Source: Escherichia phage BF17. From it: a stretch of 64,000 nucleotides of DNA. The stretch lies in the sequence record MW822008.1, one strand, 5' to 3'. Shown piece by piece: positions 4,397 to 63,075 of this stretch (positions within the stretch are counted from its first letter, which is position 1; each line of letters begins with the position of its first letter). A program made the position numbers and the translations under genes. The notes beneath the pieces were generated by a model that saw nothing but the letters and a program-made list of their open reading frames with translations, was not told the origin of the DNA and searched no databases.

Positions 4397-4660
4397 ATGA
4401 ATATTCAAGATAGATTACAATTACTGTACACACTTGAACAGGCTGCTTATGATCTTGTTCGAAAAATCTCAGATGAACTACCTAAAGGAACTAAAGTTCG
4501 TGTACGTGAGATGAATTATTTTTCTGGAGTAATTGAAGAACAAGTACTAACAGTGAATAAAGTAACATACTATGAATCTGAGTTGTCTATTCAGTGTGAA
4601 TCTGATGATGGATTAATATCATATTATGGAACTGATGTAGATATAGAGGTAATAAAATGA
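4397..4660 (+). CDS. small hypothetical protein (paralog family)
   Basis: ORF 4352..4660 trimmed to ATG after upstream stop; motif GTKVRVREM. Confidence 0.5.
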   Translation: MNIQDRLQLLYTLEQAAYDLVRKISDELPKGTKVRVREMNYFSGVIEEQVLTVNKVTYYESELSIQCESDDGLISYYGTDVDIEVIK

Positions 4661-5799
4661 CCCTTTTGCAAATATATGAAGATTTAATGCACTTATGTAA
4701 TACAAACGATGCATTCTTTTATGTGGATCATAAAAGTCCTGCTGGTGGCACGTATCGTGTATTCAGTTATCGTCTAGCATCATACACTGATTTCATGCAA
4801 CCAAATGCGTTGGAAACCCGTGGCTCTATGTGGGAAATTGATGAAGAAGGTGACATGATACGTTGTGCAGCACGTACAATGAAAAAGTTCTTCAATGCTT
4901 ACGAGAATCCTGCTACAATGTTCCCTGCTAACACCACATGCGATGACATTGCGGTAGTGATGCCTAAGTTGGATGGCTCGATCATCAGTACTTATCGTGA
5001 TAATGATGGTGAGATTCGTTGTAAATCACATACTGCATTGTATTCTGACCATGCGATTAACAGCACTCGACTTATTAACGAGAACCAGAATTTGTATCAG
5101 TACATCGACGAAGCGGAACGTTTAGGTTACACAGTTAATATGGAGTATACAAGCCCAGAGTACCGAATTGTATTACCATATCAGGTAGAACAACTGTTTG
5201 TACTGAACGTTCGTCATCGTGTGAGTGGTGAGTTGCTTTGTGGTAAAGCACTACGTGATAAGTTTCCATGTCTTGCACAGTACAGTACTAATATGACTGG
5301 AAAAGATATTCATCACACTTTTCCGGTACGAAATACCTTCCGTGAAAGCGTGGAGGAAGTTCATAAAATGCTTGATATTGAGGGTTTTGTGTGCATCCTA
5401 AATAATGGGACAATGTGTAAAATAAAGACTGACTGGTACAGTTCATTACATCTTACAAAAGATAGTATTATTATTGATTCTCATTTATATGAAGCAGTAT
5501 TAAATGGTTCAAGTGATGATTTAAAACAATTGTTCAGTACTGATGAATATGCTATGCAAAAGATATTAAGAATGGAACAATTGGTATTTTCGTGCTATAA
5601 TGCATTACAAGATGAAGTAGAAAGCTTCGTCAAGGAACACAAGCACTTGGAGCGAAAGGAATTCGCAATGAAGGTTCAGGAGTGTTTAACTAATGAACTG
5701 AATCGTCAGGGCTTGGCCTTTGCAATGTATAACAATAAGAAAGTTGATTACAAAGAGACTCTTATAAAATACATGAAAATTGTACTAAAGGATTTTTAG
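4657..5799 (+). CDS. rnlA: RNA ligase 1 (T4 RnlA-like)
   Basis: 380 aa; N-terminus, FFY, YRVFSY, LE.RG and KxDGS nucleotidyl-lysine motif align with T4 Rnl1 (recalled from memory). Confidence 0.85.
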   Translation: MTLLQIYEDLMHLCNTNDAFFYVDHKSPAGGTYRVFSYRLASYTDFMQPNALETRGSMWEIDEEGDMIRCAARTMKKFFNAYENPATMFPANTTCDDIAVVMPKLDGSIISTYRDNDGEIRCKSHTALYSDHAINSTRLINENQNLYQYIDEAERLGYTVNMEYTSPEYRIVLPYQVEQLFVLNVRHRVSGELLCGKALRDKFPCLAQYSTNMTGKDIHHTFPVRNTFRESVEEVHKMLDIEGFVCILNNGTMCKIKTDWYSSLHLTKDSIIIDSHLYEAVLNGSSDDLKQLFSTDEYAMQKILRMEQLVFSCYNALQDEVESFVKEHKHLERKEFAMKVQECLTNELNRQGLAFAMYNNKKVDYKETLIKYMKIVLKDF

Positions 5800-6622: not shown

Positions 6623-7555
6623 ATGCCAACTATCACACTAACAGTTGGATTGCCTGGGTGTGGTAAAACTACATGGGCAGTGCAAGAGATTAAAAACGCC
6701 AAATCCAAGACTATCAACATCAACCGTGATGATATTCGTGAATCTATGGCTGGGTCACATGATGCTTACAAATTCAACGATGCTAATGAGCAGTACGTAA
6801 CTAATTTACAGTTCAGTGCAGCAAATTCAGCAGCAGAGAATGGTTGGAACATCATCATATCCGATACAAACCTTAAACAACATTTCCGTAATCTCTGGAA
6901 AGTATGGGCTAAAGATAATGGTTATGATTACAAAGAAAAGAACTTCTATGATGATTTTGTACCTAATGAAGACCGTGGTGCAGATGTTCATGAATTCTTT
7001 AAGATTAAAGAGTTCGTAAAACTTTGTAAGAAATATAACCTCCAGCGTGAGCGTTCAGTACAAGATGATATCATTGACACAATGGCAGATACGTACTATT
7101 ATAGTAAGGCATTACACATTGGTTACTATGGTAATTCACGCGAAGCTGCTATCATCGTTGATATCGATGGAACTCTTGCTCATAAATGGGGTCGTAATCC
7201 TTACGATGAAAGTACTGTTCTTCAGGATACACCTGATGAAGAAGTTATTTTGTCTATTATCGCTGAAGCAGTTTTTCATAAACGCAAGATTATCGTCATG
7301 AGTGGGCGTACTGAAGGGTGTCGTGCTGATACCGAACAGTGGCTTAAGAATTGGGGTGTTCCTTACGATGCATTGTTTATGCGAGATATCGATGATAAAC
7401 GTCCTGATGATGTTGTAAAATTCGACCTGTACATGAAAAATGTGGTTGATCATTACGATGTTAAAAAGGTATATGATGACCGCGATCAAGTTGTATTCAT
7501 GTGGCGTAAGCTACTTGGGTTGAAAGTTTTCCAAGTGGCTGAAGGAAATTTCTAA
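6623..7555 (+). CDS. pseT: polynucleotide 5'-kinase/3'-phosphatase (T4 PseT-like)
   Basis: 310 aa; P-loop GLPGCGKTT, NINRDD, HAD phosphatase motif VDIDGTLA, C-terminal WQVAEGNF closely match T4 Pnk. Confidence 0.9.
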   Translation: MPTITLTVGLPGCGKTTWAVQEIKNAKSKTININRDDIRESMAGSHDAYKFNDANEQYVTNLQFSAANSAAENGWNIIISDTNLKQHFRNLWKVWAKDNGYDYKEKNFYDDFVPNEDRGADVHEFFKIKEFVKLCKKYNLQRERSVQDDIIDTMADTYYYSKALHIGYYGNSREAAIIVDIDGTLAHKWGRNPYDESTVLQDTPDEEVILSIIAEAVFHKRKIIVMSGRTEGCRADTEQWLKNWGVPYDALFMRDIDDKRPDDVVKFDLYMKNVVDHYDVKKVYDDRDQVVFMWRKLLGLKVFQVAEGNF

Positions 7556-12030: not shown

Positions 12031-12258
12031 ATGAAAGTAATTCAAGTTATGGTAGAAAAATACCAAACTGAAGATGGTCGTATTTTTGATTCAGCTAAAC
12101 AAGCTGAACACCATGAACGTATTATTTCTGGTGCACGTAAAGTATGTCCTACATGTAATGGAACACAACAAGTACCGTCAGAAGATTACCGCAGCTTTTA
12201 TGCTTGTCCACACTGTGATGGGAAAGGCTACGTAGAAAAACAAGAGGTATGGAAATGA
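12031..12258 (+). CDS. small zinc-ribbon protein
   Basis: 75 aa; CPTC ... CPHC. Confidence 0.5.
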   Translation: MKVIQVMVEKYQTEDGRIFDSAKQAEHHERIISGARKVCPTCNGTQQVPSEDYRSFYACPHCDGKGYVEKQEVWK

Positions 12259-12668
12259 AATTGTATTGCTTAACTAATATGTACTGCCAAGGTGTCCAAG
12301 CTGGTATTCAAGCATTCCATGCTGGTGTTAAACTAATTAAAGAATATGAAGGTACTGCTTTCAGTACTATTATTGATGAATGGTACTATGAACACGAAAC
12401 TATTGTAGTACTAAATGCTGGTGGACATGATAAGTTAAATTCTTATTATAACAACCTTAGCAAACAGGGAAAAGTTCCGTTTGCCAAATTCAATGAAGCT
12501 GGATTGAATGATGCTATTACCTGTGTAGCAGTACTGTGTACGTCTGAAATGATTGAAGACATGGCTGTTATGCGTATGAATCTTCCTGCTGGTGATCAAC
12601 TAATGCAAGTAAAATATGGTGCATTGTTTGACACATTAAAAGCAATCAGCACAATGAGGACAATTTGA
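12249..12668 (+). CDS. hypothetical protein
   Basis: 139-aa ORF overlapping neighbours by a few nt. Confidence 0.5.
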   Translation: MEMKLYCLTNMYCQGVQAGIQAFHAGVKLIKEYEGTAFSTIIDEWYYEHETIVVLNAGGHDKLNSYYNNLSKQGKVPFAKFNEAGLNDAITCVAVLCTSEMIEDMAVMRMNLPAGDQLMQVKYGALFDTLKAISTMRTI

Positions 12669-13867
12669 TGGATTTTCCAGAGAAGTTATTTGTTGCACGT
12701 TCCTATGTAAACCACAACCAAGTTGATGGTTTTATTATCGATGCAACAAAATCACATACAAAAGCGTTTGAAACAAAGAAAGAGAGAGCAGAGTACTGGG
12801 CAAAGAAGAACAATCTTCCATCGTTATATATTGACAACGTTCCAACTACGGGATTTTGTGTAGTTGATAAATTAACAACTCATGCACGAGAAACATATTT
12901 CACGATCCGTCACCCAGAAGGATTTGAATTTATGATTAGTGCAAAAAACATGAATGATTTAATTATCAATAACGATATAATCAAAGGTGTTTTTGTAGAC
13001 CCAATGTTTTTCAACAATAACTTAGAATTAATTAATGGTAAAACAAAAACGTTTGCTAAGTTAGTTGAAAAAGAAAATAAAAAAGAACAACAAAAAGAAA
13101 CTGTAGCAGGTCTTAAAGTTGGTGATGGTTTCACTTATCTTAAAGAAGATTACTATTACTGCGGTAAAGTACATGCAATTTGTATAAAGAAAACTAAAGA
13201 ATTTGCATATCCCGACAAAAGTTCAGTTTATCATTTACTTTTTAACAGTACTCGTGGAACTTATGCATTGAATCAACGTTTGGATAATTACAATCTTGAA
13301 CCTCGTGCACTCTTGAATAAGAAGACTACGGCAGATGAAGAAATTAAACTTGCTAATGAATTTTGGCAAAGCTATAGAACAAACAGACATAACCCATTAG
13401 GTGAATCTAACATTCCAGTACTGGTACACAATAAATCATTTAAAGCAAAAGACCTTAAAATTAAATACGAAGAAATAAATGTTGATGATCTTATGAATAA
13501 TGGACGTTTCAACGAGAACGTACCATTTATGACTAAAGATAATGAACAAACATATCGCGTATTTTTTGGTGTAAGTAATAATACAACGCGTAGTTATTAT
13601 GGGCGTAGTGGAGATTATAATATCCATTATAATGATAAATTTGAACGCTTTAGTGCATATCCAGTTCAAATTGATGATAATGGGATTATGGTAATGGATG
13701 TTGATATTAATGAACACTCATCATTTAGTACATGGAATGGCTATCGTTCCCCATTCTTCCCACCAAATGAACGCAAAACATCAAGCACTCGTTACTACCA
13801 AGACAAACCATGTCACGTTCAACTATCAATTAGTAATCCACTTTATATTGGAAAGTATTATCTATAA
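12665..13867 (+). CDS. hypothetical protein (400 aa)
   Basis: long ORF, ATGA overlap; no motif recognised. Confidence 0.55.
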   Translation: MMDFPEKLFVARSYVNHNQVDGFIIDATKSHTKAFETKKERAEYWAKKNNLPSLYIDNVPTTGFCVVDKLTTHARETYFTIRHPEGFEFMISAKNMNDLIINNDIIKGVFVDPMFFNNNLELINGKTKTFAKLVEKENKKEQQKETVAGLKVGDGFTYLKEDYYYCGKVHAICIKKTKEFAYPDKSSVYHLLFNSTRGTYALNQRLDNYNLEPRALLNKKTTADEEIKLANEFWQSYRTNRHNPLGESNIPVLVHNKSFKAKDLKIKYEEINVDDLMNNGRFNENVPFMTKDNEQTYRVFFGVSNNTTRSYYGRSGDYNIHYNDKFERFSAYPVQIDDNGIMVMDVDINEHSSFSTWNGYRSPFFPPNERKTSSTRYYQDKPCHVQLSISNPLYIGKYYL

Positions 13868-22705: not shown

Positions 22706-23464
22706 TTGAATATGATATCAGAAAAATTTATAAGCAATGAAGGTAAAAAGCGATTACTGATTATATCAGGTGCAGGACTTTCTGTTGAAAGTGGTATGGA
22801 ACCTTTTCGATTTGATGATGGTTTGTGGGATACATTTAAAATTAATGATGTATGTAACATTGCTAGTTTAACTACAAAATATCATGTTGTTCATTCTTTC
22901 TATAATACATTACGTGTAAAATTGGGACAATGCGAACCGAATGCAATGCATTATTTTATAAAATCGTTAGAAGATCAATATGGTGATTGCTTCCTTCATA
23001 TGACTTCTAACATGGACGATCTTTATACTCGTATTGGTGGTCATGAGCTTAAACTTCATGGAAACTTGTGCGAAGTTATTGAAAATTATAGTATCAATTC
23101 CGATGATTATAATGTTATTAACTGCGGATACGAACCATACATACCAAAACATGATGTTTTTGCTAAACCAAATGTAGTAATGATTGGAGAATATCATCGT
23201 TATGTTGATGGTATTCGCTTACCAATTTACGAAGAACGAAATAATGTGTTGAAATCTCTTAATGAAAATGATACAGTTATTGTAATTGGTAGTAGCGATA
23301 CAGTACTGGTATGGTCGAGATTAGCAGCAGCATTACCATGTTATAGTGTTAATGTTAACATTCGTAAAAATGATAATGATTTTTTGTTTAATGAAAAAGT
23401 TATCAAGCCAGCAACCAAAGCAATACCGCATCTAGAGACTATAATTAAGGAACGTATGAAATGA
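22706..23464 (+). CDS. Sir2-family (sirtuin-like) protein
   Basis: GAGLSVESGMEPFR NAD-binding motif near N-terminus, HG motif (LKLHGNL), C-terminal VIVIGSS Rossmann strand. Confidence 0.6.
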   Translation: MNMISEKFISNEGKKRLLIISGAGLSVESGMEPFRFDDGLWDTFKINDVCNIASLTTKYHVVHSFYNTLRVKLGQCEPNAMHYFIKSLEDQYGDCFLHMTSNMDDLYTRIGGHELKLHGNLCEVIENYSINSDDYNVINCGYEPYIPKHDVFAKPNVVMIGEYHRYVDGIRLPIYEERNNVLKSLNENDTVIVIGSSDTVLVWSRLAAALPCYSVNVNIRKNDNDFLFNEKVIKPATKAIPHLETIIKERMK

Positions 23465-24012
23465 GTGTTAAAGAAGTTCCCTTTGGTGAATATGGCACAC
23501 GTGCAAATTTTGTATTTTGTTATTTCTTTGCAAGAAAATGCAACCCTTACAAAAACTATGAGTTGAATGATATACCAGAAGTAAATTTAGTATTACTGCA
23601 ATTACGATGGGATGGTCTTCTTGGTGGATGTGGTGGAACCGTAGAAAGTACTGATATCTCACTAGAAGATGCGTTGCGTCGTGAAGTTCAAGAAGAAATG
23701 GATTACAATATTTTTGTTTCCCATCTTCGACCACTCAAAACTTTTGAAATTTACCCAGGTGCAAACAGTCACAGTTTTAGCTATGAAGTAACCTATGACG
23801 AGTTGAAACACATTAGAGATGGATACACTAATGCTAAACATGCAAGTGCAGAAGTTGCTGGTGTAAATTTATGTCATATTTCTCGTTATTCTAAGGGACA
23901 AAATCGAGAAGCGGGATATAATAATCTTATGACACAGAACTTCATCGGTACAGCAAAACAAGAATTGGAGTATCTGGTTCAAAAAGAAAACTTACTAATT
24001 AGTTATCTATAG
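23461..24012 (+). CDS. Nudix hydrolase
   Basis: Nudix box GGTVESTDISLEDALRREVQEEMDY (G-x5-E-x7-REVxEE). Confidence 0.7.
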   Translation: MSVKEVPFGEYGTRANFVFCYFFARKCNPYKNYELNDIPEVNLVLLQLRWDGLLGGCGGTVESTDISLEDALRREVQEEMDYNIFVSHLRPLKTFEIYPGANSHSFSYEVTYDELKHIRDGYTNAKHASAEVAGVNLCHISRYSKGQNREAGYNNLMTQNFIGTAKQELEYLVQKENLLISYL

Positions 24013-32368: not shown

Positions 32369-32779
32369 ATGTTAGCTGATGAATTTATGTCACTAAGTAT
32401 CAAGATATTTGATATACTAGGTGATGAAACAGATTTCAATCTAAGCGACAAAGATATTCCATTGGAAGATGGTGGATACTTTTTTGCGATTGGAACTACG
32501 TATAATCTGGATCTTTCAAAGCCTATCAGTGATGATAGTGATTATAATGCAACAACATATTTTGATTTCCAGCTTGATGGACATAAAGAGCGTTTACTAA
32601 CGTACAGACGTAAAGGTAGTTTCAATAGAACCGAGATTACAATAATGGATTTTGAAAAACGCATTGAACTAGCTAAGAAACATCCATTCATCAGTACTCA
32701 TACATTTAATAGACTAATCGATCTATTAGATAATTATCCATATACAATCCGAGGGTCGTTACGTTTAAATGCAGAATGA
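32369..32779 (+). CDS. hypothetical protein
   Basis: 136-aa ORF. Confidence 0.5.
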   Translation: MLADEFMSLSIKIFDILGDETDFNLSDKDIPLEDGGYFFAIGTTYNLDLSKPISDDSDYNATTYFDFQLDGHKERLLTYRRKGSFNRTEITIMDFEKRIELAKKHPFISTHTFNRLIDLLDNYPYTIRGSLRLNAE

Positions 32780-45930: not shown

Positions 45931-48720
45931 ATGTTAAACAATAATATTGATAATATTGTACAACTTCTTTATGGGCATCACAAATTTATTGAAAGAAATA
46001 CTGGTGATACAATAGACCCAACAGTACAACATTATGTGGTGAATAATCAGGGTGTTTTGGCGAACAACCGTCATTTTATTAACTATTCTGCAATGGAAGG
46101 TCAACCAAACGGTGACGGGACAACAGAAGGTCAAAGTCTATTAATTTTAGGATACATTTATGCGTATCTGGCAACAAATGATCCAATGTTTTTAGATAAG
46201 GCAAAGTGGTACTGGGACGCATATCATCAGTACTTTTATGCTGGACGTGAATTACCAGATCCACCTACACCACTACAATGTAACTGGATAGTTAATGCCA
46301 AAGAACCTATATTGGCTAACTGGCCTTTAGCTGATGATGGCTGGCCCACACATGGTGGTTTCAAGGGAGTAGAATTTACATTTACTAATGGTCAATGTAA
46401 AATACCACATGGTGCACCATATTATGGTCAGTTCTTGGATAAAGTGACATTTGCATTCAAAGGTGCGTTAGCATGGAACCAAATAAATGCTTCAGTAAAA
46501 GCATTATTACCAGATGGTAGTGTTGATTGGGATACACCAGGTGAACAATATGATGTTGACTGGATTATCGATTTCATGGGTAGAAAAATCGACTGGGATG
46601 GTAATATTTTAGAAGAAGGTTTTGACGAATCTGAAAAAGGAACTGTTCAATTAAAGAATACAACAATTAATGGTGTATATAAATTAAATTTTGCAAATCG
46701 TCAACCAGTAGAATATGGTGGTGTGATAATTCAACGAAATGAAATGCAACACAACCGCCCTCTTCATGTTCCAATTGATTTGGAATTTGCTGATAACGCA
46801 TCAGATGCAGAATTATGGTTTAGTGATGCTTCTTATTTGTTATATAAAATAACAAAAGAAAGAAAACATTATTTGGGTTGGAAATGTTCACTACTAACGT
46901 GTTATGCTTATGGTGATATTGACTCCAGAGATAAATTTTTCAGACAAAGTACAATTGTAACCACACCATTCACTGATGGTATTTCCTATGAATATTTTTA
47001 TCCTAGTGATGCTATTGCTAAGTTTGGTAGAAATTCTCTAGGATATATTACTATCAGGCAAGACCAAAGTGCACAAAGTACTATGGAACAACAAGCTATT
47101 TGGTTCAGGGTCAATGCTGATTCTAAATTACTTGTAGACTATGGTGGTGTATGTGATGATGGTAAGCCGTTATCATTTAAACCAGTACTGGAATTGTCAA
47201 AAACAAAAAATGACCATGATGTTGTTCGTTATCGTTGTGGCTTACCGGAAAGTAAAGACCAAAATATCACACATTCATTAACACCTTTAAGTGCATTTGT
47301 TAGAGAAAAGAAAGCAGATGGTTCCCCTTATATAATTGCTGATAGTAGAATTGTTGTTCCTTATGGTGCAGCTACGTCCGAAATGATATATAGTACTGAT
47401 ATATTAGTTACACGCCGCGATACCATTAATCAGTTAGTTTGTGGTGAAGATGATGGTGCTGTTATTGGATTTTGGCTATTAGCAACAAATAAGTCTGAAG
47501 TTAAATCTTTTACCTATCGTTCATATGAAGATGATTACAATATAAGAATTGTAGATGATAATGGTTGGAGATGGTGGTGGATGATTCCTGCAACACACGG
47601 GGAATGGACTACAATCACACTAAGTTCCGATACATTACGTTTATCTGGGTATCAGCCAAATCATCCAAGTTCTGACCCAAGACCAGATGCACCAGTTTAT
47701 AGTGAACTAGAAGATATTACTATTTTACCTGATACAACCCCAGTAGATGGTGTTGCTGCAATAATTGATTGGTATTGTATTAATGACATTCCAGAATTAT
47801 ACACGGATGCTGACGGTGATGACTATACTATGACATTTTCAATAACAATTGCAGGTGAATCACCATATACTGCACAGTTAGGGGATTGTGTAATCAAGGA
47901 TTATTTGTTAAACTCATTGCATTACACACCAGGAACAATACCATTTTCTAACATCACTGACCCGTATGCGAACCAGTATTCAGGATGGCGTGGTTTACCG
48001 TATCCAGGTTATCAATATCCTGTGATATATTGTTTTAAAGACCAGCCAGTAGATAACACACGCTTAGGAAACATGTTAAGCTTTATGAAAGATTCCCAAA
48101 CATGGTTTACTCAACAATTCGGTACTGTTGGTCCGTGTGCACAAGCATATGTTTGGAACCGCTGGGATAACTTAAAATATGGTGAACCAGATACATTTAC
48201 TATGCTACATTGGGGTGATCAAGCATGGAGTGGGTATGAACCACGTGCGTTCTTTGGGGCTGCCAGAGCATGGCAAGAACTCGCAGAGAGAGGAATTGAA
48301 CCACCAGCAGATCTTGTTGAATTTTGTGAGAATTGGATTCACTTTTTAATTCAATTTCAAAAAGATAATGATGGTCGTTCACCAACAATCTTCAATAAAG
48401 ATGGCACAGTTGAAGGTCCAGATTGGGACTTTACAGGTCATATGTGTGGGTTGTGGTTAGCTGGGGCTTGTGCTGCTGGATTGGCTGGATGTAAAATAGA
48501 AGGTCTAACAACACTCGCTGATAACTTAGTTCTCGAACTTCAAAAGAATTATGTTATTGTAAATCCAGGTTCACCAATGAATGGTTCATGGAGTCCAGCA
48601 GTTAGAGAAGGTACTGATAATGGTATGTTTTTTGGTTTCTGGGCAGGTGAGATTATGCGTGGATTGGGATTATACTCAATGTACCGCTTAAACACACCAA
48701 ATCGTTTCCGTGATTTATAA
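45931..48720 (+). CDS. large hypothetical protein (929 aa), possibly virion-associated
   Basis: Long ORF, W/D/G-rich; no motif recognised by eye. Confidence 0.6.
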   Translation: MLNNNIDNIVQLLYGHHKFIERNTGDTIDPTVQHYVVNNQGVLANNRHFINYSAMEGQPNGDGTTEGQSLLILGYIYAYLATNDPMFLDKAKWYWDAYHQYFYAGRELPDPPTPLQCNWIVNAKEPILANWPLADDGWPTHGGFKGVEFTFTNGQCKIPHGAPYYGQFLDKVTFAFKGALAWNQINASVKALLPDGSVDWDTPGEQYDVDWIIDFMGRKIDWDGNILEEGFDESEKGTVQLKNTTINGVYKLNFANRQPVEYGGVIIQRNEMQHNRPLHVPIDLEFADNASDAELWFSDASYLLYKITKERKHYLGWKCSLLTCYAYGDIDSRDKFFRQSTIVTTPFTDGISYEYFYPSDAIAKFGRNSLGYITIRQDQSAQSTMEQQAIWFRVNADSKLLVDYGGVCDDGKPLSFKPVLELSKTKNDHDVVRYRCGLPESKDQNITHSLTPLSAFVREKKADGSPYIIADSRIVVPYGAATSEMIYSTDILVTRRDTINQLVCGEDDGAVIGFWLLATNKSEVKSFTYRSYEDDYNIRIVDDNGWRWWWMIPATHGEWTTITLSSDTLRLSGYQPNHPSSDPRPDAPVYSELEDITILPDTTPVDGVAAIIDWYCINDIPELYTDADGDDYTMTFSITIAGESPYTAQLGDCVIKDYLLNSLHYTPGTIPFSNITDPYANQYSGWRGLPYPGYQYPVIYCFKDQPVDNTRLGNMLSFMKDSQTWFTQQFGTVGPCAQAYVWNRWDNLKYGEPDTFTMLHWGDQAWSGYEPRAFFGAARAWQELAERGIEPPADLVEFCENWIHFLIQFQKDNDGRSPTIFNKDGTVEGPDWDFTGHMCGLWLAGACAAGLAGCKIEGLTTLADNLVLELQKNYVIVNPGSPMNGSWSPAVREGTDNGMFFGFWAGEIMRGLGLYSMYRLNTPNRFRDL

Positions 48721-55734: not shown

Positions 55735-56062
55735 AGGACAAACTCAATATAAGTGTATTGAAGAAATCAGAAAGAAAGATGGAACACTTTTTGACAGGAA
55801 ATTAAAACAAGAATATAAAGACCTAAGAGATGTTATCCGAAATGAAAGTTTCGGTGGGAAGCGTAGGCAGAAGATTTATGAATTTCTGAAGAATGGTGTA
55901 GAAATTCAAGTCAATGGTCTTCATTGTGTACAAACCAAAAACGATCCAGATATTTTACGTCTTTTAAAAGAGGGTAAAATAGAAATGTTCAATATCCCAA
56001 TTTCATCCTATGGTAATAGATTAAAATGTAAGCACACGTACTTAAGGATTAAAAATGGGTAA
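55724..56062 (+). CDS. hypothetical basic protein
   Basis: 112-aa ORF. Confidence 0.45.
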   Translation: MALRGQTQYKCIEEIRKKDGTLFDRKLKQEYKDLRDVIRNESFGGKRRQKIYEFLKNGVEIQVNGLHCVQTKNDPDILRLLKEGKIEMFNIPISSYGNRLKCKHTYLRIKNG

Positions 56063-56639
56063 ATTAGTATATTACTATGGTAGTATGTCTAGTGGTAAAA
56101 GTACTCATCTTTTACAAAAAGCATATAACCATAAGAAAAATGGAATGAAGGTAATTTACTTAACCAGTGCACTTGATGATCGTTATGGAACAGGAAAGAT
56201 TACTTCAAGAATTGGCATCGAAGCTGTGGCTGAAGTAATTCCAAAAAATGACATTAGTGTTCTTCTTAAAGTTAAAGAAACACTCAAAAATGACGTTGAC
56301 ATTAACAGTATCTATGTTGATGAATGTCAATTTTTAAACAGAGAACAGATTGACCATTTAGCTGATATAGCAGATAATTATGGTGTTGATGTTTCCTGTT
56401 ATGGAATACGAACAGATTTTGAATCCAATCTATTTGAAGGTTCACAAAGACTGTTCGAAATAGCTGATGACATACATGAACTTAAGAACGTGTGTGAGAA
56501 TCAGAAGTGTGGCAAAGAAGCCACGATGAATGCCCGTATAGTTGAAAGTACTGATAAAGTCTTTATTGGTGGTGATGAATCATACAAGAGTCTATGCAGA
56601 ACTTGCTATATGGATTATATGAGGAATAAAAATGGTTGA
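56055..56639 (+). CDS. tk: thymidine kinase
   Basis: P-loop GSMSSGKST, VDECQF, C-terminal zinc ribbon (C..C ... C..C) typical of type II thymidine kinases. Confidence 0.85.
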   Translation: MGKLVYYYGSMSSGKSTHLLQKAYNHKKNGMKVIYLTSALDDRYGTGKITSRIGIEAVAEVIPKNDISVLLKVKETLKNDVDINSIYVDECQFLNREQIDHLADIADNYGVDVSCYGIRTDFESNLFEGSQRLFEIADDIHELKNVCENQKCGKEATMNARIVESTDKVFIGGDESYKSLCRTCYMDYMRNKNG

Positions 56640-56856
56640 TTCATTTATGAAACGCGTTTTGAATGATGTACTATCTGGATTTAAAAAAGCGACTAGTCTT
56701 ATTTTTAGTTCAGTAGTGATGGTTATTACCGTAATGGCATTTGCACTTGTACTGCATTTTGTACCATTCTGGTTAGTATTCATTGTACTCATTGTTCTTC
56801 TAGGTACGCATGTTTATTATGTTTACCGTGAAGCTTTGGATGATGATAACGTTTAA
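56632..56856 (+). CDS. small membrane protein
   Basis: 74 aa, two hydrophobic helices. Confidence 0.5.
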   Translation: MVDSFMKRVLNDVLSGFKKATSLIFSSVVMVITVMAFALVLHFVPFWLVFIVLIVLLGTHVYYVYREALDDDNV

Positions 56857-56864
56857 AAGTGTTT

Positions 56865-56888
56865 GACCTCACTATGTGGGGTCTTTTT
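56865..56888 (+). terminator. rho-independent terminator
   Basis: GACCTCA/TGGGGTC stem with G-U pair then TTTTT. Confidence 0.5.
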
Positions 56889-56899
56889 AAGGTATCTAT

Positions 56900-57343
56900 A
56901 TGCATAACGAAACTGAAGTCTTCAAACGTTTCATTGATATTTGTTTACACACGAATTTGGTATATTTGGGTCCAGGAGCAAACTTCAGAACTTTATCTTC
57001 AATTTTAGGATACACTGAACCATCATGCTTATATTGCGATGGGAACATGATCCATCTCACTGATGGTGATTTTAATGTTCAGTACATTTCACAATGTGAT
57101 ATGTATGTGTTTAATACGCCAGAATATAATATTATTATTGAAGAACGTACTAAAGATAATTACCCAACCCAATATGTAAGTTGGGATAGAACAGATTGCG
57201 TATATGCCACTGGTCCAGTACAGAAACCTATGAACTATCCTACTATTCATTTGAATGTTATCCATGATGAATTGAAAGATTACTGTAACAGTATTTCAGA
57301 TTCGGAAACAAAATACTTTCCTATTATATTTTTTAAGGTTTGA
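56900..57343 (+). CDS. hypothetical protein
   Basis: 147-aa ORF. Confidence 0.5.
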   Translation: MHNETEVFKRFIDICLHTNLVYLGPGANFRTLSSILGYTEPSCLYCDGNMIHLTDGDFNVQYISQCDMYVFNTPEYNIIIEERTKDNYPTQYVSWDRTDCVYATGPVQKPMNYPTIHLNVIHDELKDYCNSISDSETKYFPIIFFKV

Positions 57344-57735
57344 TTATGAGATGGCGTAAACGACATGTAACAAGATTTAATAAAATAATCAAAAAGTATT
57401 TCTCGCATAAGTTAGATCCAATCATACTTCAACTAAGAAGTAGTATGTTTGATAGACGTTTCCCACAGTGTTTAGAATCGTACAGTCGTAGACGTTCCAA
57501 GAATGAATACCTGGTATATCGTTATGATTTATCAGAATTCTTTTTGAATACTCGTGTATCTGTACCCATAAAACTGTACTCAAGGGTAAAACGAAGTAGG
57601 ATTCAAGATATCACGTATGGTTATCTTATGCTTGAAATCAGCGAACTAAATGAAAAAACAGGTAGAAATTTCAGTACTTTATGTCTGGAAAACAATGATA
57701 CCATAAAAAGAATTATAGAAGATTTGGGCAAGTAG
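57340..57735 (+). CDS. hypothetical basic protein
   Basis: 131-aa ORF, ATGA overlap. Confidence 0.45.
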   Translation: MIMRWRKRHVTRFNKIIKKYFSHKLDPIILQLRSSMFDRRFPQCLESYSRRRSKNEYLVYRYDLSEFFLNTRVSVPIKLYSRVKRSRIQDITYGYLMLEISELNEKTGRNFSTLCLENNDTIKRIIEDLGK

Positions 57736-57753
57736 GATTTTTTATGCTATAAT
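57724..57753 (+). promoter_or_regulatory. candidate promoter (extended -10)
   Basis: TTGGGC ... TGcTATAAT; lies very close to the SD of the next gene. Confidence 0.3.
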
Positions 57754-57764
57754 TGGAGATGAGT

Positions 57765-58109
57765 ATGAAATACATCGACAAAGGTACAGTTGAAACGCAG
57801 TACTGGAATATTCATATTGCTGGTGATATCCAAACAGCAAGAGAGTACACAAGAAAGTTCACATTCAATCTTGGTTTTTGTGTACAATTGATTCCGTGTG
57901 AATACATCTACACGGGTGGTCTTGAAAGTGGAATGTGTGCTCGTATTATTCAGTACCCACGCTTTCCAAAAGAAGAAGTATATCTCAACCGAGATGTATT
58001 AAACTATGCTAAGGGTTTAGCTGAAGAGTTGTGTCAAAAGAGTTTTACTATTGAGCGAAACAATGATACAATCTATTATGAAAGTGCCAACCCTTTACAC
58101 AAGAAATGA
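57765..58109 (+). CDS. hypothetical protein
   Basis: ORF 57753..58109 trimmed to ATG after GGAG. Confidence 0.5.
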   Translation: MKYIDKGTVETQYWNIHIAGDIQTAREYTRKFTFNLGFCVQLIPCEYIYTGGLESGMCARIIQYPRFPKEEVYLNRDVLNYAKGLAEELCQKSFTIERNNDTIYYESANPLHKK

Positions 58110-58120
58110 AAGGAAAATAT

Positions 58121-58252
58121 ATGAATGGACTAAAAAAGTTTGGTAAAGATTTTCTAAAGTGCATCCGTTATACATACGATGCCAACCCTGAAATGACTGC
58201 CATCGTGGGTGTGTTTATTACACTCGTTGTATTAAGCTTTATTGTGGTGTAA
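58121..58252 (+). CDS. small membrane protein (43 aa)
   Basis: ORF not in track; AAGGAAAA SD-like sequence; C-terminal hydrophobic helix. Confidence 0.4.
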   Translation: MNGLKKFGKDFLKCIRYTYDANPEMTAIVGVFITLVVLSFIVV

Positions 58253-58255
58253 AAT

Positions 58256-58459
58256 ATGATTGAAATTAATGCTGATGTATATTGTAGTGCATCACCCAAC
58301 TACTTCATTTATGCACTAAGTACATTTGGGGAAACTGAAGGTGAAACTTTTGTTTTAGTAGATAATACTACATGGTACAAAACAAGTAATAAAATTCCGA
58401 AAGATGTTTTGGAAACTTATGTTCGTATTGAAAATAAAAACATATATGTAAATTTATAG
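58256..58459 (+). CDS. hypothetical protein
   Basis: 67-aa ORF. Confidence 0.4.
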   Translation: MIEINADVYCSASPNYFIYALSTFGETEGETFVLVDNTTWYKTSNKIPKDVLETYVRIENKNIYVNL

Positions 58460-58466
58460 GTAAAAT

Positions 58467-58877
58467 ATGATTGAAATGGAAGGAACTCTGGTGTATGATC
58501 CAGATCGTGGCACTATGAAAAAGAAGAAGGACTTCTGGTTAGTACTACAACTTCCATTGCAGTTGGTTCGATACTACCAGTACTTCATCAGAACTAACTT
58601 ACATATTGATATTAAAGACCCACAATGGGGAGCACATGTCAGTATCGTTCGTGGTGAAGTGCCACCAAATCCAGAGTACTGGAAAAAGTACGATGGAATG
58701 AAAGTTAAGATTAAGTTCGATCCTTTCATCGAAGAAGTAAAAGACAATAAGAAACCTGGGTCATTCTTTATCATAGAGTTTGAAGATGATTTCATTGCAC
58801 AAATTCGTGATGAACTTGGTTTAGCATCTAAATATTTCAAATATCACATCACCATTGGTAGAACATACTACGATTAG
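58467..58877 (+). CDS. 2H phosphoesterase-family protein (two H-x-S/T motifs)
   Basis: 136 aa; GAHVSIV and KYHITIG motifs at the spacing expected for the 2H (LigT/CPDase) fold. Confidence 0.55.
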   Translation: MIEMEGTLVYDPDRGTMKKKKDFWLVLQLPLQLVRYYQYFIRTNLHIDIKDPQWGAHVSIVRGEVPPNPEYWKKYDGMKVKIKFDPFIEEVKDNKKPGSFFIIEFEDDFIAQIRDELGLASKYFKYHITIGRTYYD

Positions 58878-58900
58878 TGTGGATATTTGGTAAATAGGTC

Positions 58901-58928
58901 TTGATATAACTAAAAAGTATGCTATACT
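58901..58928 (+). promoter_or_regulatory. candidate promoter
   Basis: TTGATA - 16 nt - TATACT upstream of lysozyme-like gene. Confidence 0.35.
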
Positions 58929-59044
58929 ACTTAAATGTTCCAAAGAACAACTGAGTACTGTAGAAAGTCCAATGAGGCTTTTGCAAATGGCCTCTTTGCC
59001 CTCTTTGTGATTGCTCATTGTTAACAACCAACAAAGGAGGCGTT

Positions 59045-59971
59045 TTGAAAAAAGCGAAAAAAGCACTGAAAACTAAAATTGCCATAGGCGTGTTAGTTTC
59101 ATCAGCCCTATTCGCTGCGATTGGATTTTATGGTTTTTCTCAAAGTGATCGTGCATCATCATTAGACGAAAGTCAGGTGCATAATTTAAAACCACAAGTT
59201 ACGCAAATTCAAAAGCAGGAACTACCACAGGTATCAGTACCAAAAGCAGTTCCAAGCAGCGAGAAACATTATACGGTTCAACCTGGAGATAGTTATTATT
59301 CTATTGCACAGAAATTTAAACCTAAAAATGTACAGATTGAAGATTATGTCATTTTGTTGAAGAACATCAACTTAAATGCAACTCTTCATACTTCTCAGGG
59401 TATCTTTATCCCAACAAAAGAGGATTTGAAGAACGTATTGTTACCAGATGTGACTGTACTGTTTGATTATAAAGATCCAGAAATTGTCAATCACATCAAA
59501 GAAGCTGAAGGTTCTATTGAATTTCAGTCCAAGAACAAACGACGTTTACTTGGTGGGAAAGTTGGAGTTCCTTTCCACAATTCTAAATTTCATCCCTATA
59601 AGGACATGAAAGGTAATTATACAATTGGTTATGGGCATTATTTGGGTAAGAAAGATTCTGATGCAATGAAGTACAGAAACGGGATTACCAAAGCACAGGC
59701 CAACAAACTTTTAATGCAAGATATGAAAAGGACTTACGAGGACTTTACACTATTGATGCAGAAGAAAGATGCAGTTAATCTGACAAAAGAACAGCAGCGT
59801 ATCCTGTTTGAAATGTCATACACAATGGGCGTTGATAAGTTGGCAACATTTAACAAACTATGGAAAAGTGTTAAAATGGATAACCCTAAGAAATTCAAGA
59901 AAGAAATCATGAATTCCTTGTGGTATCGCCAAGTTACAAACAGAGCGGATTTGTTGTTAAGCTCACTCTAA
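59045..59971 (+). CDS. membrane-anchored LysM-domain lysozyme (T4 lysozyme-like, GH24)
   Basis: ORF 59018..59971; probable TTG start after AAGGAGG; N-terminal hydrophobic helix; LysM motif YTVQPGDSYYSIAQKF; catalytic region E...YKD..G.YTIGYGH like T4 lysozyme. Confidence 0.7.
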   Translation: MKKAKKALKTKIAIGVLVSSALFAAIGFYGFSQSDRASSLDESQVHNLKPQVTQIQKQELPQVSVPKAVPSSEKHYTVQPGDSYYSIAQKFKPKNVQIEDYVILLKNINLNATLHTSQGIFIPTKEDLKNVLLPDVTVLFDYKDPEIVNHIKEAEGSIEFQSKNKRRLLGGKVGVPFHNSKFHPYKDMKGNYTIGYGHYLGKKDSDAMKYRNGITKAQANKLLMQDMKRTYEDFTLLMQKKDAVNLTKEQQRILFEMSYTMGVDKLATFNKLWKSVKMDNPKKFKKEIMNSLWYRQVTNRADLLLSSL

Positions 59972-59986
59972 AAAGGTAGGTAAATT

Positions 59987-60319
59987 ATGCTAAATCTAGT
60001 TATCCAAGGTAATGTTGATATTACTCCAGCAATCAATGACGCAATTCATGCTGAAGCAAATGCACTAACGAAGTTTAGTGATTCTTCAGTACTGCATATT
60101 GGTGTTCATGTGAAGAAAGAGCATAAGAATCAATATTTCGTAACTTTAACATCAGGCGGTAAGAGTGTTACAGCCGATGATGCAGATTTATACAAAGCAA
60201 TTGGTGATTCATTTGAAAAAATGGAAACTGTCTTAGGTAAAGACAAAAGCATCAAATTGTATCGCCGTAACCACCCCGAACATCCAGTTCAAGAAGACTT
60301 GACTGAAGACGAAGAGTAA
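59987..60319 (+). CDS. hpf: ribosome hibernation factor / RaiA-like (S30AE family)
   Basis: 110 aa; I.GNVDIT, GG...A..DLY.AI pattern and acidic C-terminal tail resemble HPF/YfiA. Confidence 0.65.
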   Translation: MLNLVIQGNVDITPAINDAIHAEANALTKFSDSSVLHIGVHVKKEHKNQYFVTLTSGGKSVTADDADLYKAIGDSFEKMETVLGKDKSIKLYRRNHPEHPVQEDLTEDEE

Positions 60320-60825: not shown

Positions 60826-61011
60826 ATGGAATATACCATATGTGTAATTGTATGTATCATAGCCTTACTCGCAGGAGTTGGTGTGATGATTTACTGTGAT
60901 GCGGAACCAAGTACTGAAGTAGGTACAACCATCACACTTAAACCTGGTGTTAAAATTAATGATACCTATTGCTACAATCCAAACACAAACCGCTATGAGA
61001 TTTGTTTATGA
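60826..61011 (+). CDS. small membrane protein
   Basis: 61 aa, N-terminal hydrophobic helix. Confidence 0.45.
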   Translation: MEYTICVIVCIIALLAGVGVMIYCDAEPSTEVGTTITLKPGVKINDTYCYNPNTNRYEICL

Positions 61012-61415
61012 GAACATTCAACATTGATTATATAATTGATTCGATTGCAGAACATATGAAAAACATAAGTAAAAACGAGCCTGGTTTTTACTTCAACTTA
61101 GATAAACTCCATCGCAATACCAATGTATCTAGTTTTAATCGTGCTAAGAAACTTTACATCCGTATACATAACCTTTGGTACAGTGACGATACGTTGATGA
61201 TAGATATTACTGTTGATGAAGACATAACATTAAGATACATTGACGATTTTAAATCAGATGATATTCGTGCTGGATCATTACCAATTGATGCTTCATATGA
61301 AGAATATCTGCAATACCAGTTCATTGATGACACATTTGGATTTGACTTTGATCTATATAATAGTATAATGAACGTATACCATATATACGAAAGGAATTTG
61401 AATGGACATTCGTAA
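61002..61415 (+). CDS. hypothetical protein
   Basis: 137-aa ORF. Confidence 0.5.
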   Translation: MFMRTFNIDYIIDSIAEHMKNISKNEPGFYFNLDKLHRNTNVSSFNRAKKLYIRIHNLWYSDDTLMIDITVDEDITLRYIDDFKSDDIRAGSLPIDASYEEYLQYQFIDDTFGFDFDLYNSIMNVYHIYERNLNGHS

Positions 61416-61824
61416 AATACCAAATTTCCACAGTACATTAAGGTTCTTTTCTGAACAAGAAATCAGTACTGAAAGACGTGGCTTGATTTCATACAATCAT
61501 CATCGTGTTATGTACACTAATCATTTCCAGGGTACAGTTCGTATTAAATTTCGTAATGCACTCGACGACAATGATGAATTGTTAATTTTACTACGAAAAA
61601 GTAAGATAGAATTGACATACGCAACTCACCATATTGAAAGTGAGTTGATGTGGCACACACTATCAAAAAAAGAAGGGTCATTACCAGTTGATGATAATGG
61701 ACCAGAAACACTTGATCAGTACATGTTCATTGATGATACATTTAGTATTGACTATCCATCATTTCAGTGTATACTAGCTATACATAAAAAATATTACGAC
61801 CGTCTACGTGACAGATTAATTTAA
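61402..61824 (+). CDS. hypothetical protein
   Basis: 140-aa ORF. Confidence 0.5.
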   Translation: MDIRKIPNFHSTLRFFSEQEISTERRGLISYNHHRVMYTNHFQGTVRIKFRNALDDNDELLILLRKSKIELTYATHHIESELMWHTLSKKEGSLPVDDNGPETLDQYMFIDDTFSIDYPSFQCILAIHKKYYDRLRDRLI

Positions 61825-61959: not shown

Positions 61960-63075
61960 ATGAAAAAGTATTTGGTTGGCGGTTATACGAGAGATCGTTT
62001 AATGGGCATCCGTGCAAAAGACAAAGATTATGTCATTGTCGGTGCATCCGAATCTGATATTAAGTACTTGCAAAGTATTGGTTATAAGCAAGTAGGTAAG
62101 GATTTTCCTGTGTATCTCAGCCCAGAGGGTAATGAGCACGCATTGGCACGTACTGAACGTAAAACTGGTACTGGTTACGGTGGTTTCGAAGTGAATACTA
62201 AAGGCGTAACACTGGAACAAGATTTGTATCGCCGTGACCTTACAATTAATGCAATTGCGTATGATCCAGTACTCCAGATTCACATCGACCCTTATGGCGG
62301 GAAAGCTGATATCAAGAACAAAGTACTACGACATGTATCAGAACACTTTAAAGAAGATCCATTGCGTGTTCTACGTTTGGCCCGTTTCGCTACACGTTAC
62401 TCAGACTTTACAATCCATGATGATACTATGACAATGTGTAAAGATATGGTTAGTACTGGTGAACTAGACCATCTAGTCCCAGATCGTGTTTTTGTTGAAT
62501 TCGAAAAAGCACTTTCTGAAGAAAACCCTTCCAAGTTTATCAAAACTCTGGTACAATTTGGTTATTACGAAAAGGCATTTACTACAGTTCCAGTTACCAA
62601 GAAACGTCTGGAATTAATTGATGCTATCGCTGCAAATTGTACAGAAGAATATAAACCATATTTCTTATGGACAGTACTTCTTGAAAATGAAGAAGTAAAT
62701 AATGATTCAGTACTTAACGGTTCCATTAAGGTTCCAGTTAAGTACGTGAAGTTTAGTAATTACATCAAGCGTTTCCGTGAAGATATTAAAACCTTCCGTA
62801 AGAAGACCCCAGTTGAAATGGGACAAATCTTACTGGATATGAATATCAAAAACAATGGTGGTGAAGATTTCCTTTACAAAGTACTGGAAAACTTCATTTT
62901 GAACAAAGAAATTGATTCTGATCTTGAAGATTTGATTATTAAAGTTTATGATCGTTATACTGATGTTGAATTACCTGATATTCAGCAGTTAGTGAAAGAT
63001 GGTGAACTCCAAACATCGGAGATTCGTGATTTTGTTGCTGAATTGCGTATTGAAGCAATCAAGCAAATGTTCTAA
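61960..63075 (+). CDS. cca: tRNA nucleotidyltransferase (CCA-adding enzyme, class II)
   Basis: 371 aa; GG.TRD..MG, DKD (catalytic Asp pair), RRDLTINA, DPYGG and EDPLRVLRLARFA motifs of the poly(A) polymerase/CCA family head domain. Confidence 0.8.
   Translation: MKKYLVGGYTRDRLMGIRAKDKDYVIVGASESDIKYLQSIGYKQVGKDFPVYLSPEGNEHALARTERKTGTGYGGFEVNTKGVTLEQDLYRRDLTINAIAYDPVLQIHIDPYGGKADIKNKVLRHVSEHFKEDPLRVLRLARFATRYSDFTIHDDTMTMCKDMVSTGELDHLVPDRVFVEFEKALSEENPSKFIKTLVQFGYYEKAFTTVPVTKKRLELIDAIAANCTEEYKPYFLWTVLLENEEVNNDSVLNGSIKVPVKYVKFSNYIKRFREDIKTFRKKTPVEMGQILLDMNIKNNGGEDFLYKVLENFILNKEIDSDLEDLIIKVYDRYTDVELPDIQQLVKDGELQTSEIRDFVAELRIEAIKQMF

Follow-up and report, generated by a model that had tools for sequence, protein, structure and literature searches.

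A standalone 2H phosphoesterase gene of an Escherichia jumbo phage, outside the Acb1 family and possibly concerned with RNA end healing

A short reading frame of Escherichia phage BF17 raises the question of what a small protein with the look of a 2H phosphoesterase does in a jumbo phage: does it heal broken RNA, does it destroy a nucleotide signal of host immunity as Acb1 does, or does it act on something else? The reading frame was analysed within a stretch of 64,000 nucleotides (sequence record MW822008.1; hereafter, the window), in which it starts with ATG, occupies positions 58467-58877 of the plus strand, stop codon included, and encodes a protein of 136 amino acids. A prediction made from the letters of the window (hereafter, the original prediction) had called the product a 2H phosphoesterase and had hedged between RNA healing and an 'Acb1-like' role. 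The source is a 121Q/PBECO4-like jumbo myovirus of E. coli, of the genus Asteriusvirus, and the region 57700-60000 is 99.0% identical to that of Escherichia phage vB_Ec-M-J. The counterpart in the latter, EcMJ_263, is labelled 'hypothetical protein', as is the gene in essentially all of the 76 phage records that carry it (see also below), and the PHROG that the protein matches (PHROG 12204, E 3e-65) is one without assigned function. No other member of the family turned up in the window, and no second one in TH47, a complete Asteriusvirus genome of 352 kb. A second reading frame of 136 codons, at 32369-32779, was considered as a paralog and rejected; it has no Pfam match and is absent from the profile matches even at E ≤ 10. 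A scan for promoters and terminators around the 2H gene gave nothing beyond the level expected by chance.

Both of the motifs that the original prediction had named, GAHVSIV and KYHITIG, are read in the 136-residue frame, as H57-V-S59 (codons at nucleotides 58635-58643) and H127-I-T129 (58845-58853), and the two His residues are 70 residues apart. In extended form, the proximal motif is H57-V-S59-I-V-R62 (HxSxxR; 58635-58652, plus strand) and the distal one H127-I-T129-I-G-R132 (HxTxxR; 58845-58862, plus strand); both are conserved in homologs and they fall on strands E57-59 and E126-132 of the structural model, respectively. The bare pattern of two H-x-[ST] motifs is weak evidence for 2H identity: a pair of them spaced by 55-90 residues occurs in 5 of the 91 plus-strand reading frames of at least 100 codons in the window, and the stricter pair H-h-[ST]-h in just one of the 91, the 2H reading frame itself. 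The observation is nonetheless solid because of conservation and fold. Both motifs are invariant in 25 close homologs (49-88% identity), and in an alignment of 176 homologs the proximal motif is conserved at H57 (100%), S/T59 (100%) and R62 (81%) and the distal motif at H127 (98%), T129 (97%) and R/K132 (80%); further conserved positions are G63, W72, R114 and G118, along with several aromatic residues, among them Y10, W24, Y36, Y37 and W54. The predicted structure is a two-lobed alpha+beta fold whose facing central strands carry the two motifs, and it does give the 2H fold on which the original prediction had staked itself; the nominal top structural match in a fold search was Acb1 (but see below). 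Conservation, structure prediction and fold search together bear out the 2H phosphoesterase call, and as modelled the protein is a 2H-fold phosphodiesterase with an intact conserved tetrad and a predicted activity. It stops nine residues after H127, which is also the median length of the tail past the second His in the family. At the other end, a segment formed by Y10-D11-P12-x-R14 and a loop (residues 10-24; 58494-58538, plus strand), in which Y10, D11, P12 and R14 are conserved family-wide and residues 11-20 are modelled with low confidence (pLDDT ~55), is a possible substrate lid; N-terminal lids occur in some phage 2H phosphodiesterases (Doherty et al., 2025 preprint).

The family is large. 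When 1.84 billion cluster representatives were searched with a profile, 904 relatives were obtained at E ≤ 0.001 and 328 at E ≤ 1e-10, counted as clusters at 50% identity, and nearly all of them are standalone proteins of 130-170 residues. Among cultured phages, the family was found by tblastn in 76 records, and the records listed are of genomes of 310-635 kb, with a single exception, one 86-kb Klebsiella phage record. The carriers include enterobacterial RaK2-like phages as well as Xanthomonas XbC2, Vibrio 2.275.O, Agrobacterium Atu_ph07, Bacillus phage G, Ralstonia RsoM2USA and a 635-kb uncultured phage; of 69 IMG/VR loci, many are on contigs of 200-600 kb. The sole meaningful Pfam match of the query is PF22547 (2H-SAK), with 23.5 bits (E 7e-5), below the gathering cut-off of 27 bits, and over residues 90-136, that is, the C-terminal lobe only. 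One family member, P0068, exceeds this cut-off (29.8 bits), most homologs have a precomputed PF22547 match, and the ortholog from a Yersinia phage is named 'Swiss Army Knife 2H phosphoesterase domain-containing protein' in UniRef. 2H-SAK is the 2H phosphoesterase domain of the Swiss Army Knife RNA-repair proteins, which are multidomain proteins. Like 2H-SAK, the query family has two HxT/S lobes, keeps company with RNA ligases and nucleotidyltransferases, and would be expected to clear 2',3'-cyclic phosphate ends. Unlike 2H-SAK, it consists of standalone proteins of 130-170 residues and not of domains built into larger repair proteins, and among cultured phages it is almost confined to genomes above 300 kb. 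A metagenomic member of 335 residues, P0042, is a natural fusion in which the 2H domain (residues ~4-154) precedes a YqeY/GatB-like domain (E 4e-17) at the C-terminal end. A match of the query to DUF4909 was dismissed as chance, sequence searches of the PDB with the single protein and with two profiles (A1 and A2) gave chance matches and no related solved structure, and NCBIfam had nothing for the query, nor for T4 Acb1. Judged from sequence, the clade is one of minimal, standalone jumbo-phage 2H proteins related to PF22547.

A kinship with Acb1, suggested by the original prediction and by the top match of the fold search, was not borne out. The Acb1 family of Pfam, PF23474, gives no match to the query even at E ≤ 10, whereas T4 Acb1 (gp57B) scores 202.7 bits; BLASTP of the query against T4 Acb1 gave E 0.07 over 16 residues, which is not significant, and neither is the hhalign comparison with T4 Acb1. 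When the two families were aligned by hhalign (131 versus 19 sequences), a probability of 34% was obtained over 36 columns that are out of register, the distal lobe of the query family being paired with the proximal lobe of Acb1; this match reflects the duplicated lobe of the 2H fold and not family kinship. The query does resemble Acb1 (T4 gp57B, FBB1 Acb1) in being a small standalone phage 2H protein (136 versus 152 residues) with a similar distance between the His residues (70 versus 69), and its HxS/HxT tetrad recalls the HxT/HxT of Acb1, a feature common to the whole superfamily. In Acb1, however, C-terminal residues 145-152, including W147, close over the ligand as a lid, and E141 reads the adenine (Hobbs et al., 2022); E141 is invariant in our Acb1 alignment (A4), and the query has neither a C-terminal lid nor counterparts of E141 and W147. 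The Acb1 alignment also has a near-invariant Tyr five residues past each catalytic His (Y49 and Y118), where the query has R62 and R132, and the genomic surroundings of Acb1 differ from those of the query family. On these comparisons by Pfam, BLASTP and hhalign, which reject membership of the Acb1 family, we place the query outside it, and similarity of fold alone should not carry the 'Acb1-like' label onward.

The two kinds of 2H protein also occur side by side. In two environmental loci, L064 and L065, a clear Acb1 homolog (E 9e-21 to the Acb1 profile; 12793-13203 in both, on the minus strand, opposite to the 2H-family gene) lies 4.4 kb from the 2H-family gene, so one phage can carry both. 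Yersinia phage fHe-Yen9-04 has a 55%-identical ortholog of the query and, by naming only, an 'Anti-CBASS protein Acb1' in BFVD. This coexistence argues for a different job of the query family. No Acb1 was found in the window, nor in a six-frame scan of TH47 (352 kb), a negative whose sensitivity is only partly calibrated, by the match in L064 and L065, tblastn with T4 Acb1 having missed RaK2-like phages. The best match to the Acb1 profile in the window and the Asteriusvirus genome (E 0.015) lacks the catalytic His and was discarded.

The Arg of the distal motif brings the query closer to another branch of the superfamily. E. coli ThpR, which opens RNA>p to a 2'-phosphate, has the extended motifs HxTxxF and HxTxxR, and Arg130, in its distal motif, is essential for RNA>p hydrolysis. 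The ThpR/PH0099 subfamily keeps the distal Arg, which is not conserved in the Appr>p cyclic phosphodiesterases (CPDases; Tyr), CNPase (Cys), Usb1 or YjcG. The query shares the distal HxTxxR (H127-I-T-I-G-R132) with ThpR/LigT and with Pyrococcus PH0099. It differs in its proximal motif, HxSxxR, where ThpR has HxTxxF with a base-stacking Phe48, and it is some 40 residues shorter than ThpR/LigT and PH0099; no LigT-type Pfam family matches it at E ≤ 10.

What surrounds the gene was examined by calling reading frames in 75 loci (±8 kb), clustering them, verifying the recurrent clusters with Pfam and counting over 24 lineages defined at 60% identity of the 2H protein (single-linkage at 40% collapsed into one cluster and was discarded). 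In RaK2-like phages other than Asteriusvirus, the 2H gene is part of a module encoded on one strand: an RNA ligase (PHA02142 OB domain and PF09414) lies 2.2 kb upstream, a DUF2828/DUF7788 protein, annotated as 'RNA-binding protein', lies between the ligase and the 2H gene, and a LysM-lysozyme and then HPF follow downstream. Next in the module is a CCA-adding enzyme at +2.4 to +3.5 kb (over all RaK2-like loci, +2.3 to +3.6 kb), followed by NUDIX, glutaredoxin and YqeY, and a Macro gene lies at about +5.4 kb. The architecture of the DUF2828/DUF7788 protein may be Ro60/TROVE-vWA-like. Elsewhere, the arrangement is shuffled: a small PF09414 RNA ligase is found 0.7-4.7 kb from the 2H gene in lineages 1, 11, 12 and 18, RlaP near it in lineages 4, 12, 17 and 23, a Pnkp-like gene in lineages 1 and 8, and a CCA-adding enzyme within 8 kb in lineages 11, 20 and 23. 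YqeY, which is fused to the 2H domain in P0042, is a separate neighbour in RaK2-like phages, in two other lineages and in Atu_ph07, where it follows the 2H gene at 0.4 kb, Macro and NADAR lying on the upstream side. NADAR lies directly downstream (0.3 kb) in two lineage-1 loci, Macro is a neighbour in Bacillus phage G, PARG and NUDIX are neighbours in locus L009, and NUDIX is a neighbour in 7 of the 24 lineages. The recurrent neighbours are, in short, RNA-repair and ADP-ribose genes, not known anti-defence genes.

With the two syntenic RaK2-like lineages left out, at least one gene for an RNA ligase, a CCA-adding enzyme, YqeY, RlaP or Pnkp stands within 8 kb of the 2H gene in 12 of the 22 lineages. 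If the chance is taken as 4.7% per single-copy gene, for a genome of 350 kb, the binomial P for the 22 lineages in aggregate is 9e-5, 0.003 or 0.023 for 4, 6 or 8 partner families per genome, respectively. Without the RaK2-like group, no partner family reaches significance by itself (RNA ligase, 4 of 22, P 0.14). The association with RNA repair is real in aggregate and moderate, lineages drawn at 60% identity not being fully independent. Jumbo phages tend to cluster auxiliary genes anyway, which counts against arguing from the neighbourhood.

In Asteriusvirus itself the RNA-repair context is at its weakest: of the RNA-repair partners, only the CCA-adding enzyme is near. Missing are the RNA ligase, DUF2828 and YqeY genes that adjoin the 2H gene in relatives (the ligase and DUF2828 genome-wide in TH47); they were lost in the Asteriusviruses, and the interval 56000-58460, upstream of the 2H gene, holds small unknown reading frames where relatives carry the ligase and DUF2828 genes. 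For comparison, the corresponding segment of Yersinia phage fHe-Yen9-04 (L082:5284-8786) encodes the ligase (PHA02142 OB and PF09414) and a 508-residue DUF2828/DUF7788 protein just upstream of the 2H gene. Conserved downstream neighbours are the CCA-adding tRNA nucleotidyltransferase (61960-63075, plus strand; Pfam PolyA_pol and PolyA_pol_RNAbd) and a NUDIX hydrolase (63182-63595, plus strand; Pfam NUDIX), and a Macro-domain gene lies about 0.8 kb past the end of the window, at +5.5 kb from the 2H gene in 121Q. The original prediction had pointed to an RNA-repair toolkit and to adjoining tk and lysozyme-like genes. The toolkit is indeed in the window, and tk (56055-56639) and a LysM-lysozyme (59018-59971) do neighbour the 2H gene, but the ligase and the Pnkp gene are 52-53 kb away. 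The former, of the T4 Rnl1 type (4657-5799, plus strand; Pfam RNA_lig_T4_1 and T4_Rnl1_C), is the presumed sealing partner, at 53 kb; the latter, a T4 Pnkp-type 5'-kinase/3'-phosphatase (6623-7555, plus strand; Pfam AAA_33 kinase and HAD_PNKP), is the presumed end-healing partner. The window also encodes RlaP, an RNA-ligase-associated Pol-beta nucleotidyltransferase (43992-45224, plus strand; PF10127, E 6e-16), and a PTH2-type peptidyl-tRNA hydrolase (12249-12668, plus strand; PF01981, 25.2 bits, just over the cut-off).

The best reading is that the protein is a metal-independent RNA 2',3'-cyclic phosphodiesterase that serves the repair of breaks in tRNA or other RNA. It draws support from the 2H fold with its conserved tetrad, the PF22547 match, the RaK2-like module, the association in 12 of 22 lineages, the 2H-YqeY fusion, the HxTxxR motif and the phage's own Rnl1, Pnkp, RlaP, CCA-adding enzyme and PTH2, and on that support we hold it to be about evenly poised between right and wrong. 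We infer the activity, the substrate and the pathway as follows. By analogy with ThpR, H57 and H127 would supply general acid and general base catalysis, and the pentacoordinate phosphate would be stabilised by the Arg at +5 from each of them. The substrates would be the 2',3'-cyclic phosphate ends that arise when metal-independent host nucleases, anticodon nucleases among them, cut tRNA or other RNA. Once the cyclic phosphate is opened to a phosphomonoester, the end would be ready for the phosphatase/kinase Pnkp of the phage, which would remove the monoester; Rnl1, an ATP-dependent RNA ligase, would then seal the ends, and RlaP and the CCA-adding enzyme would restore lost nucleotides. T4 Pnkp removes 2'-PO4, 3'-PO4 and >p, and since a Pnkp of the T4 type alone heals RNA>p, a 2H CPDase would be partly redundant here. 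This weighs against the reading, as do the proximal HxSxxR motif and the thinned-out RNA-repair neighbourhood in Asteriusvirus. Iyer et al. (2021; PMC7824862) have predicted that 2H enzymes of jumbo phages clear cyclic ends for ATP-grasp ligases, their example being QDH83605.1, and a second study makes the same link, to KptA, Macro and NADAR (Iyer et al., 2022; PMC9503650). Jumbo-phage 2H enzymes of such a kind were thus already predicted, and the query is an unannotated addition to them. Between the two roles that the original prediction had left side by side, the evidence favours RNA healing, and for membership of Acb1 it gives no support.

The alternative that survives best, though we think it unlikely, is a role in anti-defence: the protein would be a phosphodiesterase that breaks down a soluble nucleotide signal of host immunity, Acb1-like in action and outside the Acb1 family. 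The signals to be considered are the cyclic di- and trinucleotides of CBASS, the cyclic oligoadenylates of type III CRISPR, 2'-5'-linked oligoadenylates and 2',3'-cNMPs. Many phage 2H phosphodiesterases that are not Acb1 do cleave immune messengers (Doherty et al., 2025 preprint), but two structural groups in that study were inactive on all 18 messengers, so the 2H fold alone does not predict messenger cleavage; none of the GenBank proteins listed there was matched to the query family, the Atu_ph07 entry being a different gene. The features that set the query apart from Acb1, that is, the lack of a PF23474 or other significant profile match and of the C-terminal lid, and Arg in place of Tyr, weigh against this alternative, as do the neighbours of the gene. 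The coexistence with Acb1 in L064 and L065 and, by UniProt naming, in fHe-Yen9-04 argues, together with the RNA-repair context, against simple redundancy with Acb1, and less against a different signal. In a variant that we likewise regard as unlikely, the protein would be a counter-defence enzyme with a substrate new to phage 2H enzymes, and not a plain healer of RNA ends. One candidate substrate is an ADP-ribose-derived cyclic phosphate, a signal or toxin, that would be processed together with Macro, NADAR and NUDIX; another is RNA>p or 2',3'-cNMP 'alarm' molecules that report an attack on the translation apparatus.

ADP-ribose chemistry could also be the substance of the pathway. The substrate would then be Appr>p or another cyclic phosphate derived from ADP-ribose, and the neighbouring Macro (Appr-1''-p phosphatase) and NUDIX (ADP-ribose pyrophosphatase) enzymes would finish its breakdown, the purpose being either to clean up after NAD-dependent removal of 2'-phosphates from repaired RNA or to destroy a host signal or toxin derived from ADP-ribose. 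The order 2H, Macro, NUDIX is that of the textbook yeast Appr>p route, and it has been proposed for phages by Iyer et al. (PMC7824862, PMC9503650); RaK2-like phages, Atu_ph07, Bacillus phage G, lineage 1 and L009 have Macro, NADAR, PARG or NUDIX genes no more than 8 kb from the 2H gene, and the only Macro gene of the TH47 genome is 6.5 kb from it. Outside the RaK2-like group, however, Macro/NADAR is found in 3 of 22 lineages (P 0.33), which is not significant enrichment. A phage-encoded source of Appr>p was also sought and rejected: KptA/Tpt1, which makes it, is missing from Asteriusvirus, from the RaK2-like phages and from all 75 neighbourhoods, so a host KptA would need to supply it. Moreover, the characterised Appr>p CPDases, yeast Cpd1 and the Arabidopsis CPDase, have Tyr past the distal HxS/T motif where the query has Arg. 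With these points taken together, we regard Appr>p or its kin as an improbable substrate. Finally, that the 2H fold plays no catalytic part or serves for binding alone, as in a sensor of RNA ends or nucleotides, is very improbable, given that both His, both S/T and the Arg at +5 are conserved over ~900 clusters, the signature of a selected active site.

Placing the gene in the 2H superfamily and in the RNA-repair and ADP-ribose neighbourhood of giant phages fills a gap in annotation, and it flags a large 2H clade (~900 clusters) known so far from computation. If healing of RNA>p is its role, RaK2/121Q-like phages would have a second route of 3'-end healing beside Pnkp; if a soluble signal is what it breaks down, it would count as a new anti-defence enzyme, separate from Acb1.

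Several other genes of the window deserve mention in their own right. The PTH2 gene, labelled only 'hydrolase' in the closest record, is a further translation-rescue function in the window. An HPF/RaiA-type ribosome hibernation factor (59987-60319, plus strand; Pfam Ribosomal_S30AE, E 3e-10) is encoded two genes downstream of the 2H gene, and it has the same place in other RaK2-like phages (g181 of fHe-Yen9-04). A Sir2-family gene, the stop of which overlaps the start of a Nudt16-like NUDIX gene directly behind it (together 22706-24012, plus strand), forms with the latter a possible NAD+/ADP-ribose or RNA-decapping pair. Neither of two adjacent, overlapping reading frames of 137 and 140 codons (61002-61415 and 61402-61824, plus strand), directly upstream of the CCA-adding enzyme, matches Pfam; they are paralogous (BLASTP E 5e-9) and have in common a C-terminal 'GSLP-D...Q-FIDDTF-D' segment. 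Lastly, three very large reading frames of 898, 939 and 929 codons (35882-38578, 39104-41923 and 45931-48720, all on the plus strand), each a 'hypothetical protein' in the closest record, flank the region of the RlaP gene.
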